From a virus, in the IMG/VR virus record IMGVR_UViG_3300034072_000679, positions 1-59,154 of that record: 59,154 nucleotides of DNA; one strand, given 5' to 3'. The notes under the pieces are model-generated. The model was given only the letters and a program-made list of their open reading frames with translations. It was not told the DNA's origin and did no database searches. Both the position numbers and the translations under genes were made by a program. Position 1 is the stretch's first letter, and every line of letters starts with the position of its first letter. This document shows, one piece after another, positions 4,477 to 59,154 of the stretch.

Positions 4477-4660
4477 GCCATCGAGATCGGCAGTCTGCGC
4501 GGGCGTTGATCCCGAGCCAAGCGCGGACTGCCAGCCCTCGGGTCGCACCGAGGGGCCGGGGAAGGTGAACGTGCTTCGACGACGCGTAAGCCTTCCCCGG
4601 CTTAGTTGGAGACCGGGCTACTGCGACCCAAGCCCGGTCTCCTACTAAGCCGGGGATACC
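4477..4660 (+). promoter_or_regulatory. Highly structured intergenic leader with four inverted repeats, two mutually exclusive
   Basis: Stems 4489-4532, 4534-4553, 4556-4565/4591-4600 and a 24-bp stem 4595-4618/4632-4655 ending 5 nt before the ATG at 4661. Confidence 0.6.
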
Positions 4661-5947
4661 ATGTCCGAACACCATCCGATCACTGACCAGATGCTCGCGG
4701 ACAAGAACGCCACGGGCCACTCGATCTTTGGGCCGTCTAGCGCACACCGCTGGATGCGTTGCCCGCGATCCCTTATTGCCGGACATCTGGCAGGCGACAA
4801 CCCGAGCTACTACGCGGCAGAGGGGTCCATAGCGCACTGGCTGGCCGAGGACTGGCTTCTCAATGGCAATCCTTATCGACATTTGGGCACGATCCACGAG
4901 AAAGACGGGTTCGAGATCGAGATCACCGAGGAAATGATTTCCTACGTCGAGGAGTACGTGTCGCTGGTCTCGACGATGCCCGGCAAGCACTACGTCGAAG
5001 TCAAGGTTGATCTTTCCAAATATACCCCTGTCCCCAGCTTCGGCACTTCCGATCACATTAGCGCCGAGTGGGGCATCCTGCGCGTCAAGGACCTCAAGTA
5101 CGGCAAGGTTTGGGTCGAGGCCGAAGATAACGAGCAAGGGCAGGCGTATGCTCTGGGCGCGTTCGAGGAGCTTGACTGGCTCTACAACTTCCAGACCATC
5201 GAGATTCAGATCGTCCAGCCGCGCCGGGATAACTACGATGTCTGGACCATCACCCGAGAGCAACTTCTTGAGTTCGGGGAGCGGTATCGCGAGGCCGCGC
5301 ACAAGGCGTGGGACCCGGAGGCTCCGTACAACCCGGACCCGATTGCTTGCGAGTACTGCCCGGCCCGGTTCGCCTGCCCGGCGCTCGCCGCCGTCAAGGT
5401 CAAGCTCGCGGCAGCCAGCTTCGACGATCTCGATGATACCGAGATGACCCCGTCTCAAGCCGTGGCCGTGATCGAGCAGGAAATGGTTTCCACGCCCCGG
5501 CTCCCTGCTTTCAACGAAGTCCCGGTCGAACGGCTCGCCCAGATTTACGAGTGGCGACCGATTCTGGAGAAGTATTTCCGGGAGATGTACGACTATCTGC
5601 TCAAGAAGCTGGAGATGGATGTCGAAGTTCCGGGGCAAAAACTCGGTATGGGCCGGGCGGGGAACCGTAAATGGACAGACGAGAAGGCCGCTCGTCGTAT
5701 GCTCAGAGGTCGTGGTATTACGGATATCGACATGTACGAGCAAAAATTCATTTCCCCTGCTCAGGCAGTTCAGCTATTAAGGGTTTCCCTTGGGGGCACG
5801 ATCAAGGAGAACGACGCGAGAATTGCGCCGTTCGTCTATCAGCCGCCGGGGAAAGTGACGATGATCCCAGCCAGCGACAAGCGGGAGGGGATTGCGTCAG
5901 CGGTGTCTGCGTTCGATGACGACGTAGATTCCATCGGTAACTCGTGA
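4661..5947 (+). CDS. PD-(D/E)XK nuclease, DUF2800/Cas4-like
   Basis: 428 aa; GTSDH...DLKYGK nuclease motif, C-terminal CEYCPARFACP cysteine cluster; synteny with DUF2815 and PolA. Confidence 0.8.
   Translation: MSEHHPITDQMLADKNATGHSIFGPSSAHRWMRCPRSLIAGHLAGDNPSYYAAEGSIAHWLAEDWLLNGNPYRHLGTIHEKDGFEIEITEEMISYVEEYVSLVSTMPGKHYVEVKVDLSKYTPVPSFGTSDHISAEWGILRVKDLKYGKVWVEAEDNEQGQAYALGAFEELDWLYNFQTIEIQIVQPRRDNYDVWTITREQLLEFGERYREAAHKAWDPEAPYNPDPIACEYCPARFACPALAAVKVKLAAASFDDLDDTEMTPSQAVAVIEQEMVSTPRLPAFNEVPVERLAQIYEWRPILEKYFREMYDYLLKKLEMDVEVPGQKLGMGRAGNRKWTDEKAARRMLRGRGITDIDMYEQKFISPAQAVQLLRVSLGGTIKENDARIAPFVYQPPGKVTMIPASDKREGIASAVSAFDDDVDSIGNS
4931..4941. repeat. GAAATSATTTC palindrome copy
   Basis: gGGAAATGATTTCCt-like context GAGGAAATGATTTCCTAC; read E-E-M-I-S. 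Confidence 0.9.
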
Positions 5948-6688: not shown

Positions 6689-8863
6689 ATGGGACGCACC
6701 CGACTCCACCACGACTACGAAGTCAAGAGTGAAGTCGATCTCCTTGCTCAGGGGATCGACCTTTACTCGTCTCACCAGTCCACCAAGGTTCTCATGTGTT
6801 CGTGGTCTCTCGACGACGAACCGACCCAGCTTTGGGTCCCAGCAGAAGGGGAGCCGATACCCTCCGACCTCAAGGAGGCCCTGCGGGACCCGGAGGTCGA
6901 TAAGATTGCGTTCAACGCTCAGTTCGAGCGGTGGATCGCTTGGCGCGTCCTCAAGCGCCAGATCGGGCTGGAGATCGAGCGCACCTACAAGCCGTGGCGC
7001 TGCTCCATGGCGCTCGCCTACATGTTCTCGTTCATGGGCGGTCTCGACGACATCGCGGACCAGATGTCCCTGCGCCACCGGAAGGACCCCCGTGGCCGGG
7101 CGCTGATCCGAGAGTTCTGTATGCCCAACAAGCCGACGAAGAAGCAGCCCTTCGTCTGGCGCGACCAACACAGCGATCCCGAGGATTGGGAGACGTTCAA
7201 GAAGTACTGTATCCGAGACAATGAATCGGAGAAAGAGCTTTGGTCCAAGCTGATTAAGTTCGGGGTCCCGGACTTCCAGTGGGACCTGTACGAGCTTGAC
7301 CAGATCATCAACGACCGGGGCCTCCCGATTAACCGCCGGTTCGTCGAGAACGCACTGGCAATCGCAGGGCGTCGTAAGACGGAACTCATTTCCGAGCAGA
7401 ACCGGATCACAGGTCTCGCGAACGCCAACAGCGGCGCTCAGCTTCTCCCGTGGCTGATCGACCGGGGCTACCCGTACGAAAACCTCCAGAAACAGAACAT
7501 AGTCAAGCTGCTGGCGGCAGAGGAGGAGGAAGTCCGCAACCCCTCGCCGACCTACGACTACGAGCAGAGAAAGCTCGTACCGAACAGCTACCCGGAGGCG
7601 TACTTCAATCCGCTGGGTCAGGTGGAGGGCAACGCTGTCCTGACGGCAGAGTGCCGGACTGTCCTGCGGATGCGGCAGGCATCGAGCAAGACTTCGACGA
7701 CCAAGTACGAAGCGACCATGGACCGGCTCGCCGACGACGACCGCTTGCGCCACTGTTTCCAGTACGCAGGCGGCTCGCGGACGAACCGCTGGGCCGGTCG
7801 GGCGCTCCAGCCGCAGAACCTCCCCAGAACGCCAAAATGGCTTGAGCCGGAGGACTACATCAACTTTGACCGGCTCGACTACTGCAATAGCCTGATCGAA
7901 GCCGGAGATTACGCCACTCTGGGCGTGTTCGCGGGCGAACAGATGGACGCGGTGGCCGGATGCGTCCGATCCACGATTCAGGCTTCCGAAGGCAAGAAGC
8001 TCGTTGTCAGCGATCTCTCCTCGATTGAGTCGGTGGTGATCTTCTGGATCACGGATTGCGAGCGCGGCTTGAATGTGTTCTGGAGTGGCAAGTGCGCTTA
8101 CAAGGACTTCGCGACCGATCTGTATGGTGTGCCCTATGAGGAAGTCACCAAGGCGCAGAGATCGGGCGCTAAGCCTGCGGTGTTGGGCGCAGGCTATCGT
8201 CTGTCAGGCGGCGAGCTACGAGACGGCGAGAAAACCGGCCTCTGGGCGTACGCCGAGAACATGGGTATCCAGATGACGCGCGAGGAGGCCAACCGCGCCG
8301 TGGATGTGTTCCGGGATACCTACAGCGAGATCAAGAACGCTTGGTACCAGATCGAGGATACCATCGAGCGCGCCATGGCGGCGGGCGGCAAGATCGTGAA
8401 GTGGGGCCATCTGGAGTTCCAGATCGTCAAGCCTTTCCTGCGCGTTGGGCTGCCGTCAGGCCGGTCTATGTGGTACTACCAGCTTCGGGTCGAGAAGTAC
8501 GAGGCAGAGGGTCGCTACGGCCCGTACATGCGGACCAATATCTCGTACATGGGAAAGTGCCAGATCACGCAGCAATGGAAGCGTATCGAGAGCCACGGCG
8601 GCAAGTTCATCGAGAACTTCGTGCAGGCCCTCGCCCGCGACATCCTCGGTTTCGGGATGCTGGCGGCGCACGAGGCAGGCTACTACATCTGCGGGCATGT
8701 TCACGACGAAATCATTTCCGAGGAGGACGAGGACGACGAGGTCCACAACCTCGACGGCTTGCGCCATTGCATGACTAAAGCTATCCAAGAGAAATACGCC
8801 TTCCTGCGTACCATGCCGCTCAACGCTGCCGGGTATGAGGGTCGAGTTTACAAGAAGGATTGA
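6689..8863 (+). CDS. Family A DNA polymerase with N-terminal 3'-5' exonuclease region
   Basis: 724 aa; DLSSIESVV (motif A), RSGAKPAVLGAGY (motif B), HVHDEI (motif C), QPQNLPR. Confidence 0.9.
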   Translation: MGRTRLHHDYEVKSEVDLLAQGIDLYSSHQSTKVLMCSWSLDDEPTQLWVPAEGEPIPSDLKEALRDPEVDKIAFNAQFERWIAWRVLKRQIGLEIERTYKPWRCSMALAYMFSFMGGLDDIADQMSLRHRKDPRGRALIREFCMPNKPTKKQPFVWRDQHSDPEDWETFKKYCIRDNESEKELWSKLIKFGVPDFQWDLYELDQIINDRGLPINRRFVENALAIAGRRKTELISEQNRITGLANANSGAQLLPWLIDRGYPYENLQKQNIVKLLAAEEEEVRNPSPTYDYEQRKLVPNSYPEAYFNPLGQVEGNAVLTAECRTVLRMRQASSKTSTTKYEATMDRLADDDRLRHCFQYAGGSRTNRWAGRALQPQNLPRTPKWLEPEDYINFDRLDYCNSLIEAGDYATLGVFAGEQMDAVAGCVRSTIQASEGKKLVVSDLSSIESVVIFWITDCERGLNVFWSGKCAYKDFATDLYGVPYEEVTKAQRSGAKPAVLGAGYRLSGGELRDGEKTGLWAYAENMGIQMTREEANRAVDVFRDTYSEIKNAWYQIEDTIERAMAAGGKIVKWGHLEFQIVKPFLRVGLPSGRSMWYYQLRVEKYEAEGRYGPYMRTNISYMGKCQITQQWKRIESHGGKFIENFVQALARDILGFGMLAAHEAGYYICGHVHDEIISEEDEDDEVHNLDGLRHCMTKAIQEKYAFLRTMPLNAAGYEGRVYKKD
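8708..8718. repeat. GAAATSATTTC palindrome copy
   Basis: GACGAAATCATTTCCGAG in PolA, directly after motif C; read D-E-I-I-S. Confidence 0.9.
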
Positions 8864-8865
8864 CG

Positions 8866-9675
8866 ATGCGCCTGTTCTACCACCCTGAAAGCGATAGCCT
8901 GTTCCTCTCTGAGCCGGGAGACTGGCAGAACTCGGCAGACGGCGCGCTCTCCGAAGATGTCAGCGATGACCCGAAGTTCCTTAATCTGGCTACGCTGGAG
9001 GATATCGACGTGAGCCTGATCGAGCCGCTGGAAAGCAGGCCCGCCAAGGCCGTCGGGATGGCGGGAGCGATCACCGAGGCGATGAAGAAGTGGGCGCGCA
9101 AGCCTGCTGATCTCTACCCCACGCCAGTCGATTGCACCTACAGCCTGTTGCCGCATATCGCCGATCTGGTCCCCCCTGACGCGAAAGTGTGGGAGCCTGC
9201 TTGCGCGGACGGCCAGATGGTCAGGCCGCTTGAGCAGTTCGGCTACCGCGTCACGGCTACCGATCTGCGGCCTGACGTGACGGGCGGGGTTGGCGGGATC
9301 GACTTCCTTGATCCCGTCTCTCCTTACCACGATCAGTCGTACGATCTCGTGGCGACCAATCCTCCCTTCGTGGCCGCTGACGCTTTTATCCGGCAAGCTC
9401 TGGAGCAGGCCCCGGTCGTAGTCATGCTCCTCAAGGCGCAGTACTGGAACACGAGGAATCGGAAGAAGCTGTTCCGTGAGACCAAGCCTTACAAGGAGCT
9501 TAACCTGACGTGGCGGCCCGCTTTCCTTGAGAAGGAGCGCGGCAAGTCACCTCTCATGGACTGCATGTGGGTTGTCTGGGTTCGCGGCCACCAAGGGCCT
9601 TGCACTACGGAGATGATTGACCGGCTGCTGGAGTGCCCGGTCAACGTCGGCGCGATGGACATGGGCGGCCTGTGA
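8866..9675 (+). CDS. SAM-dependent DNA methyltransferase (NPPF type), orphan
   Basis: VWEPACADGQ (motif I-like) and LVATNPPF (motif IV); ATG at 8866 after AGAAGGA; ends AMDMGGL. Confidence 0.7.
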   Translation: MRLFYHPESDSLFLSEPGDWQNSADGALSEDVSDDPKFLNLATLEDIDVSLIEPLESRPAKAVGMAGAITEAMKKWARKPADLYPTPVDCTYSLLPHIADLVPPDAKVWEPACADGQMVRPLEQFGYRVTATDLRPDVTGGVGGIDFLDPVSPYHDQSYDLVATNPPFVAADAFIRQALEQAPVVVMLLKAQYWNTRNRKKLFRETKPYKELNLTWRPAFLEKERGKSPLMDCMWVVWVRGHQGPCTTEMIDRLLECPVNVGAMDMGGL

Positions 9676-29937: not shown

Positions 29938-30765
29938 ATGGCCTATAGTGATTTCGAGATTTCCAACGCTGACGGCCAGCCGGTCGCCCTGTACACGTTC
30001 CAGTACGGGAACACATACTGGTACTATTGCACGGCAGACGAGAACCAGACCGTCGGCGGGATCACGTACGAGGCGCTGGCGATCACCGATGAAGGGGTCA
30101 CTCAGGGCGGCTCCGACCAGAACGATCTCCAGATCAGAACGCGAGCAGATCACCCCGTAGCTCTGCTTTTCCGTAACCGCCAGCCGTCCGGCAAAGTCTG
30201 GCTGAGCGTCCGCCGCTGGCACATAGGAGACCCTGACGAGGAGACCCCGCTGCTCTGGAGCGGCACTATCGTCAACGTGGTCACGTCGGATCGCGCTACC
30301 GCCCAACTGGCCGGTCGATCTCTGGGCGGGTCTTACGACCGCAACGGCCTGCGGCTGGCGTGGTCCCGCATGTGTCCTCACGTCCTCTACGGTATCGGAT
30401 GCAACAACAGCGGCAGCAACGCGAAAGAGGACCACGCGTATCCTCACACCATAGCCACCGTTGATGGCATCCGTTTCACCGTGACTTCGTATGCCGCGCC
30501 TAGCGAAGGGAGCTTCACGGGCGGGTTTATGGAGTGGATTAGGGACGACGGCAGCCTCGACCGGCGTGGGATCGAGTCTCACGATGGAAATGATTTCCTA
30601 GTCCTCGGTTCTACCGATGGACTCGAAGTCGGAACTGCGGTAACGCTTTATCCGGGCTGCCCGCGCAACACCGACGGGTGCAAGCGGTTCAACAATCTGC
30701 CCAACTACGGAGGCTTCCCGCATCTGCCGGGCAAGTCTCCGTTCGATGGTACGCCGGTTTTCTAG
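29938..30765 (+). CDS. Tail hub protein, DUF2163 / BR0599 (GTA g13-like)
   Basis: C-terminal LYPGCPRNTDGCKRFNNLPNYGGFPHLPG matches the BR0599 signature as I recall it. Confidence 0.7.
   Translation: MAYSDFEISNADGQPVALYTFQYGNTYWYYCTADENQTVGGITYEALAITDEGVTQGGSDQNDLQIRTRADHPVALLFRNRQPSGKVWLSVRRWHIGDPDEETPLLWSGTIVNVVTSDRATAQLAGRSLGGSYDRNGLRLAWSRMCPHVLYGIGCNNSGSNAKEDHAYPHTIATVDGIRFTVTSYAAPSEGSFTGGFMEWIRDDGSLDRRGIESHDGNDFLVLGSTDGLEVGTAVTLYPGCPRNTDGCKRFNNLPNYGGFPHLPGKSPFDGTPVF
30587..30597. repeat. GAAATSATTTC palindrome copy
   Basis: ATGGAAATGATTTCCTAG; read G-N-D-F (different frame from most copies). Confidence 0.9.
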
Positions 30766-39342: not shown

Positions 39343-39816
39343 TCAGGTCCTTTCTGCCCGGAAGCGCAGCCATGGCTCCCAGAGCGGCCTGACTGTACGA
39401 CGGACCTCCTGTGCATACAATACCGTCGTATGGGTCCCTGAGCGCCTGCCGCTATCGAGCGCCCATAGCTCGTCACAGTGATCGACGATCCACCTGTCTC
39501 GCCCGATGTAGGCGCTGTTGAGCGCGAGCCGGGATTGAACGTGGACCCGACTGGCCCCCTGTATGCACCACGCCCAGTCCTCCTGATCTGCCTTGGGCCA
39601 GTGGTTCGGCTGGCTGGGGAAGGGGAGTGCCGCGACGTAGGGCAGGCCCGCATCCATGGCGGCCTTGGCGATCTTGAGGTCCCAGCCGCGCGCCATGCCG
39701 GTAATGATTTCCGTGCAGCCGCGCTCGATCATGAGGGCAACAGAAAGCCGGGCGAACATCAACAGTTCGCCCGGCTCCTGTACAACGTCCCGGTGGCCGG
39801 TAACGCCGACGATCAC
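39343..39816 (-). CDS. SLOG-fold protein (DUF1273/YpsA/YoqJ-like)
   Basis: N-terminal VGVTGHRD and TGMARGWDLKIAKAAMDAGLPYVAALPF pattern. Confidence 0.6.
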   Translation of the reverse strand: MIVGVTGHRDVVQEPGELLMFARLSVALMIERGCTEIITGMARGWDLKIAKAAMDAGLPYVAALPFPSQPNHWPKADQEDWAWCIQGASRVHVQSRLALNSAYIGRDRWIVDHCDELWALDSGRRSGTHTTVLYAQEVRRTVRPLWEPWLRFRAERT

Positions 39817-39819
39817 GGG

Positions 39820-41064
39820 TCAGAGGCCGCCCATGCCGTCATCCGCCGATTCCGGGGCGCTGGTGGCTTCCGGCGGGGTAGCCGGGGGTTCGGTAGCCGG
39901 AGCGGGCTTCTTCGCGTTCTGGGGCTTCTGAGCGGGCTGCTTGGGCTTGGCCTTCTCAGGGGTCTTGCCCTTCGGGGCGGCCTTGCCCTTGGCAGCAGGC
40001 TTCTTGGCAGCCGCCTCGGCGAGCAGCTTCTTCTCCGCTTCGCGCTTGGCAGCGGCCTCGGCCTTCGCCTTCTCGGTAGCCGCCTTCTTGGCAGCGGCTT
40101 CCTCGGCCTTGGCCTTCTTCTCCGCTTCGCGCTTGGCAGCGGCCTCGGCCTTCGCCTTCTCGGCGGCAGCCTTGGCGGCCTCGGCTTCGCGATCCACGAC
40201 ATGCACCGTGATCTCGATCTTGCCGTCCTCGGCCAGCTTGTCGCCGTCGCCGATCTGGACCTCGGCCCGGATCGCCTTCGCCATGTTCTTGAGGATGTCG
40301 CCCATCACGTCGCCCGAACCGAAGTTCATGGTGATCGCGACCTTCTTCATCTTCGGCCCGGTCGGCGCGCTCGCGGTCGTCTTGGGGGTGGCCTTCGCCT
40401 TGCCCTGCTCCTCGGCCTTCTTGATGCGCGCGGTGATCTCGGCAGCCGCGTCCTTGGTGCCGTGCTTACGAACCAGCTTGACGGCTTCGGCCCCGGCGAT
40501 CTTGCCACTGGCGACGGCCTTCTTGACGGCCTGATTCGCGTCGGCGAGGACGAACAGGTTATCGACGTGGCGGGTCGTGCGGCCCAGTGCCGTCGCGATC
40601 TCGTCCTTCGACATCCCGAGACCCTGCATACGACGGACGACCGCCGCAAGCTCGACCATGTTCAGGCGCTCGCCCGCGTTACCGTGGGCAAGGTGGATGG
40701 TCAGGTCGCGCACCGTCGCGCCGTCCTTGGCCCACGCGACCGGCAGGCCGTCGGGGAACTCGGCACCATCGAGCAGAGCCGCCTTGGCCGCGTCGAAACG
40801 GTGTTCGCCGTCGTAGATGTAGACGGTGTCGTCGCCGGGCAGCATGGTCACGGCGAACGGCTTGTCGTCGAAAAAGCCGTTCGCGACGATGCTTTCGGCG
40901 ATCCCGGCGACACGCTCGCTGTAGTCGGCATCCTTGACGCGGGTGTTGAAGCCCGGCAGCACGGCGAGGTTGTCGAGCGCCACGCGCGTCGGCGCGTTTT
41001 CGGGGCGCACGAACGTCATGGTCGTGTCGAACTTGTCAGCGGGCAGATTGATTGCGGTGGTCAT
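39820..41064 (-). CDS. ParB/sulfiredoxin-like N-terminal domain protein with Lys/Ala/Glu-rich repeat tail
   Basis: LPGFNTRVKD, IYDGEHRFDAAKAA (GxxR box), central HTH-like region, AEKAKAEAAAKREAEKK repeats; ends ADDGMGGL. Confidence 0.75.
   Translation of the reverse strand: MTTAINLPADKFDTTMTFVRPENAPTRVALDNLAVLPGFNTRVKDADYSERVAGIAESIVANGFFDDKPFAVTMLPGDDTVYIYDGEHRFDAAKAALLDGAEFPDGLPVAWAKDGATVRDLTIHLAHGNAGERLNMVELAAVVRRMQGLGMSKDEIATALGRTTRHVDNLFVLADANQAVKKAVASGKIAGAEAVKLVRKHGTKDAAAEITARIKKAEEQGKAKATPKTTASAPTGPKMKKVAITMNFGSGDVMGDILKNMAKAIRAEVQIGDGDKLAEDGKIEITVHVVDREAEAAKAAAEKAKAEAAAKREAEKKAKAEEAAAKKAATEKAKAEAAAKREAEKKLLAEAAAKKPAAKGKAAPKGKTPEKAKPKQPAQKPQNAKKPAPATEPPATPPEATSAPESADDGMGGL
40027..40163. 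repeat. 50-bp exact direct repeat, two copies 87 bp apart, inside the ParB-like gene
   Basis: CTTCTTCTCCGCTTCGCGCTTGGCAGCGGCCTCGGCCTTCGCCTTCTCGG at 40027-40076 and 40114-40163. Confidence 0.85.
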
Positions 41065-41097: not shown

Positions 41098-41403
41098 TCA
41101 CGACATGCCGAGAGCGGTCTTGTACGTTTCGAGCAGCATGTCTTGCTCGGCAATATCTTCGGGCTTCATCTTCCGGAGGGTCACGATCTTCCGCATGATC
41201 TTGGGATCATACCCGACCGCCTTGCCCTCCATGTAGACATCCTTGATGTCGTCGGACAGGGCCTTCTTTTCCTCCTCCAACCGCTCGATACGCTCGATCA
41301 GCAGGCGGAGGCGATCAGCCTCGATGTCGGCAGCCTTCAACTGCTCCGGGGACACGTCAAAAGTGTCGTCCTCCGAACCGGAATTATGGCCCATGCCAGT
41401 CAT
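41098..41403 (-). CDS. gapR: GapR-like nucleoid-associated protein (DUF2312)
   Basis: LRLLIERIERLEEEKKALSDDIKDVYMEGKAVGYDPKIMRKIVTLRKM...LETYKTALG closely parallels Caulobacter GapR as I recall it; start ATG 41403. Confidence 0.8.
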   Translation of the reverse strand: MTGMGHNSGSEDDTFDVSPEQLKAADIEADRLRLLIERIERLEEEKKALSDDIKDVYMEGKAVGYDPKIMRKIVTLRKMKPEDIAEQDMLLETYKTALGMS

Positions 41404-41480
41404 AGATTGTTCGACCTTTCGACCTTCAAGAACGAGACGACATCTGCGCCCGAAGAACGCAGATGTCAACCCGGAATCTG

Positions 41481-43212: not shown

Positions 43213-43629
43213 CTAGATCGACTTGCCGCCCGGTTGGCGGCGGTTCTCGGGCTTGTGATCGGCGCGGCTGGCGTTGTACTCCAGCTTCTCGACGAGCGCG
43301 CCGCCGATGTCATAGCCGAGGCCGCCCGCGAGGTCCATAAGCCGGATGATCGTGTCGGCGATCTCGACCTCCGCCATCGGGCGATGCGGCAGCTTGTCGT
43401 CCTGCAAGCCCTTGCGGTACCCTTCCAGAGCCTCGGAGACCTCGCTATGCACGAGCGCCAGCATCTCCGGGACGTTGCGCTTCGGGCCGGGCGTGGTGTG
43501 CCGGAGGTCGGCCCCGGTGTGCAGATCGGTCCACCACCCGGCATCGAGGTTGCGCTGGTGGATGATGTCGCGCAGACGATTGAGCGACTGGCCGAGGAGG
43601 GGGAGGTCAGAGTCCGTTGTCGGGGTCAT
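43213..43629 (-). CDS. mazG: MazG-like nucleoside triphosphate pyrophosphohydrolase
   Basis: LVHSEVSEALEGYRK...EIADTIIRLMDLA (EExxE...D pattern). Confidence 0.8.
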   Translation of the reverse strand: MTPTTDSDLPLLGQSLNRLRDIIHQRNLDAGWWTDLHTGADLRHTTPGPKRNVPEMLALVHSEVSEALEGYRKGLQDDKLPHRPMAEVEIADTIIRLMDLAGGLGYDIGGALVEKLEYNASRADHKPENRRQPGGKSI

Positions 43630-43891
43630 GGGTAGACGTGTCCTTCTTCTTGCGGATGCTCAGGCCCTTCTCCTTGCGGAGAAACCAAGGCCAGAACCGG
43701 GAAAAAATCTTGACGTGCGGCTTGGCATACCGCGCGTCGTCGTGCATCGCCCGCCGGAGCGGGATCAGCTTGGGTAGATGGCTCTCGACGTGGTACGCGA
43801 GGTCCTTCTCGGTCGCCCGGCTGGTAGGGGGCACGGAGACTTCCACCACCACCCGGAGCTTGCGCCACGGTCGCTCGCGCATATCAGTCAT
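43607..43891 (-). CDS. Small basic hypothetical protein ending DPDNGL
   Basis: ATG 43891 after GGAGGAGG; 94 codons. Confidence 0.5.
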
Positions 43892-44099
43892 CAGGTACCT
43901 CCTCCAGCGCACTCGCCGGATAAATCTGAACAGAGTGCCGGTGAACATCGCTCTCGATGGCGTAGCCTTCGGGCGTAAACCCAGTCGAGTAGAAGCCGAC
44001 AACGTGACCCTGCCACTGGGAGCCGGACTTCTTGCGAAGCCAAGCGCCGATTCCCCAGCGAAAGCCGTCAGGTTTTTCTTCGGGCAGCAGACCGCACAT
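43884..44099 (-). CDS. dfrB: Type II (R67/DfrB-like) dihydrofolate reductase, SH3-fold
   Basis: [48 protein letters not shown] aligns by eye with R67 [47 protein letters not shown]; ATGA overlap with upstream stop. Confidence 0.8.
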
Positions 44100-45151
44100 C
44101 ACAGCAGCCCGTGCTTGCGGAGGACATCCTGCGACTCGTCGATGAACATGGCAAGGGTTGCCGAGTCCTCGTCCGCGTAGCCGTCGTCCGTCTGATCGCC
44201 GCTGACCGTGTACTCGGTCGCGAACTCGCGCAGCTTCGCCGCCATGGCCGGGGCTGCCTTCGTCCGATCCCAGTCGGAAATGATTTCCGTCAAGACGGCG
44301 CGATGTTCTTCCTCGGTCGCAAGAGTCTTGTCCCACGCCTCGCGGTCGATCAAAGGTTCGACTTGCGCCCGGATAATCGAGTCCACGATGCTCGGGGCCA
44401 GAGCGTCAAGCTCCCAGCACTCCTCGGTCTCAAACCGATCCATGTACCACTTGGTCCGGGAGTCGGTCTCCTTGACGAAGTTCGGCGGCGGCTTGAACTC
44501 GCCGATCTGCGGCATCGTCAGGGCGATCCGGCGGAAGTCGATCTGGTGTCGGGCATACATGTCCACCCGCTCCTGCGAAACCTCGGTCATCTGGACCCCG
44601 CTGGGATCGTGGTCGCCCAGATACAGGATCATCGTCTCGTACCCGGCGCGCTTGAACGCTTCCAACCGCTTGCCTGCCTCGTACAGGCCGCTCGACGAGG
44701 AGTAGCCCCGGCACGAGAAGTACGGGAGGCGCAGGGCATCGCACGTCGGCTGGACGATACCGACCGCCGCGTCCTTCTCGACCCAGACCTCGATTCGCCG
44801 CAGAACCGGCTGCTCGTCCCACGGGTCCAGTTTGAAGCTCTCCCGGATACGCTCCAGCGCCCGCTCAGGGCCGTCCCAGACCGAAATCCGACGGAGACCA
44901 CGCGTACGGTCCTCGATGGCATCCCAATCCACCAGACCGGCCTTGCGAGCCGCATCAAGGATGTTGCCGAGGCGCTTGTAGTTCGCCTGCGTGTTCTCGT
45001 AGAGATCGCGGGCGACGAACTGGTAGTGAATCTGGCGCAGGGTCAGCGTGTAGCCCTGTCCCAGATATTCGGCGATGATCTGGTTCGCCTGCCGGATGAC
45101 CCATTCATGGGCCTTGGTGAACTTCTTCGGGATGAACGCTTCAACGGCCAC
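44099..45151 (-). CDS. Spo11/Topo VI-A-like protein (5Y-CAP plus Toprim; Mini-A type), no B subunit nearby
   Basis: LRQIHYQF (R-x3-Y), [11 protein letters not shown] (Toprim Glu), LGDHDPSG (DxDPxG); GTG 45151 seven nt after AAGGAG (ORF extends to 45193). Confidence 0.6.
44277..44287. repeat. GAAATSATTTC palindrome copy
   Basis: TCGGAAATGATTTCCGTC; read T-E-I-I-S on minus strand. Confidence 0.9.
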
Positions 45152-45302
45152 GGGGCGGCTCCTTGTTCTCGACCTTGTCCGCCGGAGCGGCAAGCTGTTG
45201 CTTGATACGGTCTACCATCTCGACCGTGCTTCCCCGGCGGGGCTGGGGCGGCGGGGCCGCCCGGATCGGATCATTGTCCTGCACGACGGCCCAGCCTCCC
45301 TG

Positions 45303-45551
45303 TTAGCTGAGCTTCGCGCTGAGCATGTCGTAGGCATCGCCGACCTTGGCGACCTTATCAGCCTCGTGGTCGGGGATTTCGATACCGAACTGCTCCTCGA
45401 ACGCCATGGTCAGTTCGACCATGTCGAGCGAATCGCAGCCGAGATCGTCGAGGAAGTCGGATTCGCGGGTGATCTTGTCAGGATCGCAGCCGATATGTTC
45501 GAGGATCGTCTGATTGACCTTGGAAATGATTTCTTCGGTAGACAGGTGCAT
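45303..45551 (-). CDS. Acyl carrier protein
   Basis: 82 aa; DDLGCDSLDMVELTMAFEEQFGIEIP with the DSL phosphopantetheine-serine motif; ATG 45551 after AAGGAG. Confidence 0.8.
   Translation of the reverse strand: MHLSTEEIISKVNQTILEHIGCDPDKITRESDFLDDLGCDSLDMVELTMAFEEQFGIEIPDHEADKVAKVGDAYDMLSAKLS
45523..45533. repeat. GAAATSATTTC palindrome copy
   Basis: TTGGAAATGATTTCTTCG; read E-E-I-I-S near the ACP N-terminus. Confidence 0.9.
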
Positions 45552-45577
45552 GGTAGTACTTCTCCTTTGGTTGTATG

Positions 45578-45781
45578 TTAGCTGCGGAGCGCGCGGGCAG
45601 CGGCCATCGGGTCGCCCCGGCTGATCTGCTGCTGCGCTTCCATGATCTTGCACTGGAGCCGGATAAGCTCGGCCTTCGTGACCGCCGGGCCTCGCCCGAT
45701 AACCATGTCTGCGTAGGCGGAGACACCGCCCGGCTGGGGTGCCGGGATCGGGTCCATCGCGCCGAAAGGACGATCAGCCAT
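45578..45781 (-). CDS. Small hypothetical protein
   Basis: ATG 45781, 8-nt overlap with upstream gene end. Confidence 0.45.
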   Translation of the reverse strand: MADRPFGAMDPIPAPQPGGVSAYADMVIGRGPAVTKAELIRLQCKIMEAQQQISRGDPMAAARALRS

Positions 45782-58921: not shown

Positions 58922-59154
58922 TGGCGGTCAACGATAAGCTCGGCACGGTTGAGGAAATGCGGGCGTGGGCGCAGTCGATCATCGACTCGCGGCCTCCGGA
59001 CTTCACTATCGAGGATGGTGACAAGCAGCCGTACATGCACCGCTGGTTCGTGGTGCCCCGGAACCCGGCGGGCGGCTGCTACATCCACCAGATAGTCCGT
59101 AGCGACAAGGACGTGCATCACGATCACCCTTGGGACAACACCAGCTATGTTCTC
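58921..59154 (+). CDS. 5' part of the junction-spanning gene (continues at 128..394 of the circle)
   Basis: ATG 58921 (TAATG with upstream stop); no stop before the window end; in frame with ORF 8..394. Confidence 0.7.
   Translation, partial: MAVNDKLGTVEEMRAWAQSIIDSRPPDFTIEDGDKQPYMHRWFVVPRNPAGGCYIHQIVRSDKDVHHDHPWDNTSYVL
59028..59154. repeat. Terminal direct repeat, second copy of 1-127
   Basis: Identical by eye to bases 1-127. Confidence 0.95.

Follow-up and report, generated by a model that had tools for sequence, protein, structure and literature searches.

A stand-alone DfrB-type gene, probably encoding an R67-type dihydrofolate reductase, at the Mini-A/orf94 junction of an uncultured siphovirus

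For the DfrB (R67-type) dihydrofolate reductases, 386 homologues have been sorted into five clusters (Lemay-St-Denis et al. 2025, PMC12486381). In the catalytic clusters I and II the pore motif of the B4 strand has the pattern nonpolar/polar/nonpolar/aromatic; VQIY is the commonest form of the motif and is exclusive to cluster I, and Lys32 is the most conserved residue among the active homologues (PMC12486381). Trimethoprim resistance was obtained from 114 of the 123 homologues predicted to form tetramers (the remaining 9 gave no expression or an insoluble protein), cluster-I homologues gave high trimethoprim MICs, and homologues 38-55% identical to DfrB1 had similar kinetics (PMC12486381). 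The authors of that study suspect that the DfrB domain has another native function.

Viral members of the family have been described as well. These include DfrB-H3 from a Pseudomonas phage and DfrB-H4 from a Vibrio phage (Lemay-St-Denis et al. 2023, PMC9835603), 20 viral homologues of which some were assayed (Lemay-St-Denis et al. 2025, PMC12486381), 8 homologues in lytic phages (PMC12466917), and DfrB genes on four freshwater virome contigs (PMC7265639). In the viral cluster-I set, 7 of 10 genomes were without ThyA, and the genes lay near DNA-metabolism genes (PMC12486381).

We found DfrB homologues in 25 GenBank phage records, from Rhizobium, Ochrobactrum, Sinorhizobium, Vibrio, Pseudomonas and Aeromonas phages, and several were annotated as R67 or dihydrofolate reductase. 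The novelty of a phage-borne dfrB was overstated in the initial annotation of the locus studied here, as such genes are already annotated in GenBank and counted in the literature, and some have been tested. A confirmed DfrB was present in at least 296 IMG/VR stretches. Among cellular genomes we observed 91 DfrB loci, mostly in Burkholderiales, Sphingomonadales and Rhizobiales; none was above 70% identity, so that they hinted at neither a host nor a donor. The DfrB described below was at most 68% identical to any of the GenBank phage copies.

The DNA that we analysed is a viral stretch of 59,154 nucleotides (IMG/VR record IMGVR_UViG_3300034072_000679; the whole stretch is called the window below). 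The dfrB-type gene and its surroundings contain the following features.

45303-45653, minus strand: acyl carrier protein (Pfam PP-binding, 42.5 bits; phrog_5934)
44099..45148, minus strand: Mini-A (Spo11/Topo VI-A-like, 5Y-CAP plus Toprim), 350 aa, assigned from phrog_6247, motifs and fold
44097..44101, minus strand: TGATG junction, in which the Mini-A stop (44101..44099) and the dfrB start (44099..44097) share one base
43884..44099, minus strand: dfrB-type CDS, ATG start, TGA stop, 71 aa
44031..44033, minus strand: Lys23 codon, equivalent to R67 Lys32, an invariant column in the 64-homologue alignment
43917..43934, minus strand: SVQIYP codons, S56-V57-Q58-I59-Y60-P61, equivalent to R67 S65-P70, read from the sequence
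43607..43891, minus strand: orf94, 94 aa, ATG at 43891..43889, overlapping the dfrB end by 8 nt
43213..43629, minus strand: MazG-like all-alpha NTP pyrophosphohydrolase, 138 aa (phrog_5658 pyrophosphatase, E=1e-64)

The gene had been called an R67-type (DfrB) reductase by eye, and this identity was borne out by Pfam DHFR_2, by the R67 chains of the PDB and by the predicted fold. The HMM and BLAST searches against the DfrB family that had been proposed as a check gave significant matches. Pfam PF06442 DHFR_2 (R67 dihydrofolate reductase) scored 78.7 bits (E=3e-22; profile positions 23-77 of 78), the gathering score of this family being 25 bits. R67 DHFR chains in the PDB (1vie, 2rk1, 2gqv and others) matched residues 10-68 at E=5e-19, with 33/59 identical positions (56%) across the whole SH3 core. 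The motifs picked out by eye (RKKSG, WQG, TPEGYA.ES and SVQIYP) were all present in the 71-aa product, which consists of a single free-standing DfrB domain of the SH3-like kind, preceded by a short disordered stretch. The NCBIfam model NF000331 trim_DfrB also matched (89 bits, E=1.4e-25) but fell short of the curated 137 bits of that model, which places the protein among the environmental homologues and not among the named clinical alleles of the DfrB1-DfrB10 kind. Judged by its sequence, it is an environmental cluster-I DfrB homologue.

We examined the conserved positions in the alignment of 64 homologues. The invariant columns were K23, G26, W29, Y37, G45, Y46, E49, S50, S56-V57-Q58-I59-Y60-P61, A64 and L65, which correspond (offset +9) to R67 K32, G35, W38, Y46, G54, Y55, E58, S59, S65-P70, A73 and L74. 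In the R67-type tetramer SVQIYP forms strand B4, which lines the central pore, and V57-Q58-I59-Y60 fits the pore motif of the catalytic DfrBs in its cluster-I form, VQIY. Lys23, as placed by its equivalence to R67, would be the positive residue that holds NADPH and DHF in place at the mouth of the pore. H53 (R67 His62) was present in the window protein and in two orthologues, and its column varied among the 64 homologues. For R67 itself, we take K32, Q67, I68 and Y69 to line or flank the pore, and W38, S59 and H62 to lie at the dimer-dimer interface (Narayana 1995; Krahn 2007).

An AlphaFold2 monomer model from the same alignment had a pLDDT of 88.7 and five strands, as in an SH3-like barrel protomer. 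When this model was compared with the PDB using Foldseek, the top 7 matches were all R67 DHFR (target-normalised TM up to 0.95, rmsd 0.6-0.9 Å), and superposition on 1vie gave a TM of 0.95 and an rmsd of 0.9 Å. The next matches, to generic SH3/Tudor/KOW-like domains, were five orders of magnitude weaker than those to R67 DHFR. In a viral structure library the best three matches were DfrB-domain proteins of phages.

Homologues of the protein numbered 105 in a large protein collection, and PF06442 was found in 105/105 of them. The nearest ones, which also have 71 aa and are 77-78% identical, come from contigs 58.8-59.0 kb long with a gene order like that in the window: ACP, a 351-aa gene, DfrB, a 95-98-aa gene and a MazG/PRA-PH gene, followed by GapR, ParB and a DprA-like gene. 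In a codon alignment of the window gene with its orthologues in two sibling phages (L001 and L003), the dN/dS was 0.14-0.18 at a dS of 0.8-1.4. The start of dfrB lies in the same TGATG junction in both siblings. We concluded that dfrB is kept by purifying selection, because of this dN/dS and because the junction is the same in three lineages. These data also bear on whether a 71-codon ORF, in a region where several spurious ORFs overlap in other frames, is merely a chance reading frame or a decayed, non-functional remnant. Against this stand the Pfam match at E=3e-22, the low dN/dS at a dS of about 1 or more, start and stop junctions conserved in three lineages, and a confident predicted fold. 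A chance ORF is excluded by the conservation data, and we give this explanation practically no weight.

The window is a whole genome. Its ends (1-127 and 59028-59154) are an exact 127-bp repeat, a pattern typical of assemblies closed into a circle at k=127, and it therefore represents a closed, complete phage genome of 59,027 bp. Among its products are terminase, portal, protease, and major head and tail proteins, and also a DNA polymerase, a primase, a helicase, an exonuclease and an Enc34-type SSB. Its terminase shared 46-51% identity with the terminases of siphoviruses of about 55-62 kb (PaMx25, NP1, BcepNazgul, AH2 and the Sphingomonas Carli type). A megablast of the 12 kb around dfrB against 50,697 phage records gave no relative at the DNA level. 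The lineage, one of Mini-A-bearing siphoviruses of about 59 kb, is not among the isolated phages. The other genes that we refer to are listed here.

41098-41469, minus strand: GapR-like nucleoid protein (111.6 bits)
39820-41064, minus strand: ParB-like protein, in a row with the GapR-like gene and conserved in siblings
39343-39816, minus strand: small DprA-like protein, in a row with the ParB-like gene and conserved in siblings
29938-30765: BR0599-type tail protein
8860-9675, plus strand: DNA methyltransferase-like gene (phrog_799, E=1e-44), adjoining the DNA polymerase

The GapR-like and BR0599-type tail genes suggest that the host belongs to the Alphaproteobacteria. The DNA methyltransferase-like gene had no Pfam match at E<=0.001. 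Sibling phages carry the acyl carrier protein gene at the matching place; we recognised no enzyme that would partner it.

The first reading of the sequence had recognised no thymidylate synthase, which proved true of the closed genome as a whole. When virtually all ORFs of at least 100 aa were scanned with Pfam and PHROG, no ThyA, ThyX or FolA came up; tblastn of the window with approximate ThyA, ThyX and FolA queries also found none. An ORF of about 165 aa that spans the circular junction is not ThyA, ThyX or FolA either.

The gene upstream of dfrB had been labelled Spo11-like, a reasonable description, since the 350-aa protein is a Mini-A type IIB topoisomerase-like protein by phrog_6247, motifs and a fold match to Topo VI-A. 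Mini-A has been described as a virus-specific type IIB topoisomerase A-like protein without a known B subunit (Takahashi et al., PMC7671362). Its signature comprises a length of about 300-350 aa, 5Y-CAP plus Toprim, RxxY/FY with the catalytic Tyr, E...DxDxxG, and xWELDAL (PMC7671362), all of which the window protein shows. It matched phrog_6247 ('DNA topoisomerase') at E=1e-90 and shared 41% identity with Mini-A from Pseudomonas phage NP1. The invariant positions among 35 homologues were R39..H42-Y43 (RQIHY), E125, D180-H-D182-P-S-G185 and W246-ELDAL251. The best Foldseek match of its model in the PDB was the M. mazei Topo VI-A chain 9o8p_A (E=3.8e-3, low global TM). Searches of PDB, Pfam and NCBIfam gave no sequence or profile match, so that Mini-A was identified by PHROGs, motifs and fold search only. 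The protein collection contains over 5,600 Mini-A homologues, with a Pfam domain in none. The ORF as called mechanically extends to a TTG at 45193.

Translational coupling of dfrB to this neighbour had been proposed through an ATGA overlap. The overlapping stop and start were confirmed, but the overlap is TGATG. Likewise, dfrB had been placed next to MazG; a MazG-like gene is indeed nearby, but the 94-aa orf94 lies in between. Orf94 had no match in Pfam, PHROG or NCBIfam. It belongs to the backbone of the lineage, with homologues (48-74% identical) after Mini-A in all close relatives, and may be a partner of Mini-A. The stop codon of Mini-A and the start codon of orf94 usually overlap in the lineage. 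A promoter/terminator scan of 38-49 kb gave results at or below chance expectation.

We then compared the Mini-A/orf94 slot across sibling phages, which were gathered via Mini-A and not via DfrB, and scanned locally. In seven of them (L008, L009 and L011-L015, with Mini-A 75-82% identical) the slot was empty, the Mini-A stop being joined straight to the orf94 homologue. Where orf94 has an ATG start (L011, and also L010), the two genes meet in the same TGATG. Exactly this Mini-A/orf94 junction holds dfrB in the window, L001 and L003. The gene is thus a precise insertion at a coupled junction. In L016 (IMGVR_UViG_3300009982_000009) the same slot was occupied at 7067-7933 by a 288-aa ThyX overlapping the orf94 start, and in L010 a ThyX (Pfam Thy1) was found at 4504-5208, two small genes beyond the slot.

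The presence of ThyX in the slot of dfrB supports a role in thymidylate/folate supply. We favour a metabolic role over a structural one, because the recognisable cargo of the slot is a thymidylate-cycle enzyme each time. A milder idea is that dfrB and thyX may be interchangeable cargo of one hot-spot slot, since both would free phage dTMP synthesis from the host FolA.

The position of dfrB raises a structural alternative, namely that DfrB is mainly a non-catalytic SH3-like module for binding or oligomerisation, maybe a partner of Mini-A, with DHF reduction as a promiscuous side activity. It would fit the TGATG coupling of the dfrB start to Mini-A, the lack of a known B subunit or partner of Mini-A (PMC7671362), and the enrichment of tetramer-forming homologues near replication, recombination and repair genes, for which a native binding function has been suggested (PMC12486381). 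However, dfrB was absent from 7/9 of the Mini-A siblings sampled without bias, where Mini-A is coupled straight to orf94, and Mini-A was missing from the best 80 of the 296 viral (IMG/VR) DfrB loci. The alternative cargo of the slot, ThyX, is a metabolic enzyme, and all features of the catalytic clusters are retained under selection. We consider such a module quite unlikely. Its most specific form, in which the DfrB tetramer would be the functional partner of the coupled Mini-A and act as an oligomerisation or DNA-associated stand-in for the missing B subunit, is less likely still. If true, the partnership would be a lead to the non-catalytic native function that has long been suspected for the DfrB SH3 domain.

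We also compared codon usage at the slot. The GC3 of dfrB in the window was 0.65, against 0.83-0.90 for Mini-A, orf94 and MazG; in L001 and L003 it was 0.72-0.74, against 0.83-0.87 for the neighbours. The lower GC3 suggests that dfrB was acquired later and horizontally, from a source of lower GC.

An accessory gene with a GC3 below that of its neighbours could also be antifolate-resistance cargo. It would then safeguard phage replication, or else a lysogen or carrier host, where trimethoprim or natural antifolates block the host FolA, and might also form a transferable reservoir. A DfrB fold would be intrinsically insensitive to trimethoprim, and the high MICs given by cluster-I homologues (PMC12486381) agree with this explanation. 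A study of lytic phages also reports that their trimethoprim-resistant dfrA genes affect phage and host fitness during infection (PMC12466917). On the other side, no integrase, transposase or integron feature was present in any scanned ORF, the protein scored under the NCBI AMR cut-off (89 vs 137 bits), and DfrB homologues have been argued to be older than trimethoprim and mostly not mobilised (PMC12486381). We regard resistance as an improbable main purpose of the gene, though it may be a side benefit. The initial annotation had seen here an environmental, mobile reservoir of dfrB; the environmental part of this claim stands, but no mobility genes were found. Since mobility genes were not found and the sequence is below the thresholds for clinical alleles, the concern over a resistance reservoir is low for now.

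Returning to the metabolic role, we conclude that the gene is an authentic member of the R67-type (DfrB) dihydrofolate reductases and that its product probably recycles folate for thymidine synthesis. The window protein falls squarely in the class of active homologues, because of its 56% identity, its VQIY motif and its Lys32 equivalent. From these features we infer with high confidence that it is an active DHF reductase which trimethoprim would not inhibit. Somewhat less firmly, we consider it likely that the reading holds as a whole, i.e. that a homotetrameric, NADPH-dependent, trimethoprim-insensitive enzyme regenerates tetrahydrofolate for the host ThyA during phage DNA replication.

The mechanism that we propose is as follows. 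The gene lies in the early/replication operon of the phage and would be translated via coupling to the upstream Mini-A gene. Four 71-residue SH3-like protomers are predicted to form a D2-symmetric homotetramer. The VQIY strands would line its one central pore and Lys23 would flank it, and in this pore NADPH and dihydrofolate would be held together. Hydride transfer in the pore would then give tetrahydrofolate regardless of trimethoprim, the insensitivity being presumably intrinsic because the DfrB fold is unrelated to FolA. In the infected cell, DfrB would raise the recycling of the dihydrofolate made by the host ThyA and so relieve the limit set by FolA. The expected outcome is that the supply of dTMP (and of other one-carbon products) is sustained during the burst of phage DNA synthesis. 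Speculatively, the MazG-like pyrophosphatase may feed the same nucleotide pathway.

A homologue of the window MazG was found in 4 of the best 80 of the 296 IMG/VR DfrB loci, in 3 of them immediately downstream of dfrB (L147 5371-6054, L154 4192-4782 and L160 10001-10690; 48-57% identity). These three and the fourth, L130, are unrelated contigs without Mini-A or orf94. That a MazG-like gene recurs beside dfrB in unrelated viruses speaks for the metabolic role. In the closest siblings, L001 and L003, the MazG-like genes had no detectable similarity to that of the window. In the PDB the only match of the window MazG-like protein was a weak one to MazZ (7ody, E=0.04). A link to PurZ and Z-genomes, prompted by this match, was rejected, as the window has no adenylosuccinate-synthase-like ORF.

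Several points weigh against the proposed role. As the phage is without a thymidylate synthase, there is no classic TS-DHFR pair, and dfrB is dispensable, since most siblings do without it. DfrB enzymes are slow, being about 100-fold less efficient than FolA. ThyA, ThyX and FolA were found near dfrB in none of the best 80 of the 296 IMG/VR loci (1.0 Mb of flanks), which makes the link to dTMP synthesis an indirect one. Deletion of FolA-type dfrA genes from lytic phages left the burst size unchanged (PMC12466917).

Together, these results add a well-supported stand-alone cluster-I DfrB to the viral set, from an uncultured lineage of siphoviruses of about 59 kb whose host is probably an alphaproteobacterium. 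The modest new point is the alternation of dfrB with ThyX in one slot at a tightly coupled junction. This slot comparison lends independent support, from genomes, to the idea that viral DfrBs would serve thymidylate/folate supply even without a phage thymidylate synthase.

In comparison with known systems, the window protein shares with DfrB1/R67 of plasmids and integrons (1vie, 2rk1) the Pfam family, the SH3-like fold and 56% identity over a 59-residue core. The RKKSG, TPEGYA.ES and SVQIYP segments are identical, and the counterparts of Lys32, Trp38, Ser59, His62, Gln67, Ile68 and Tyr69 are all present. However, its gene lies in a phage replication operon and not in an integron cassette or plasmid, the N-terminal tail has about 13 residues instead of about 20, and R67 Trp45 is replaced by Phe. 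The viral cluster-I DfrBs of Lemay-St-Denis are likewise phage-encoded, carry the VQIY motif and mostly come without ThyA.

The window DfrB stands alone, whereas in Ochrobactrum phage ZX86 and Rhizobium phage RHph_N3_2 the domain is the C-terminal part of a longer protein. In these proteins (177 aa, L006 5650-6183, and 208 aa, L007 5566-6192, respectively) DfrB makes up the C-terminal third, after an uncharacterised N-terminal part.

The FolA-type enzymes of phages (T4 frd, dfrA-like) catalyse the same reaction for the same presumed purpose, tetrahydrofolate for dTMP synthesis, and both DfrB and FolA-type dfr genes are over-represented among lytic phages (PMC12466917). The fold of the window DfrB is unrelated to theirs and its quaternary structure would differ; T4-type phages pair their DHFR with a thymidylate synthase of their own, which the window phage does not have.

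Finally, the ThyX of the sibling phages L016 and L010 is a different enzyme at a different step, as it makes dTMP without dihydrofolate, whereas DfrB would recycle the dihydrofolate of a ThyA-type synthase. The ThyX of L016 nevertheless occupies the same slot, and both enzymes would cut the dependence of dTMP synthesis on the host FolA.
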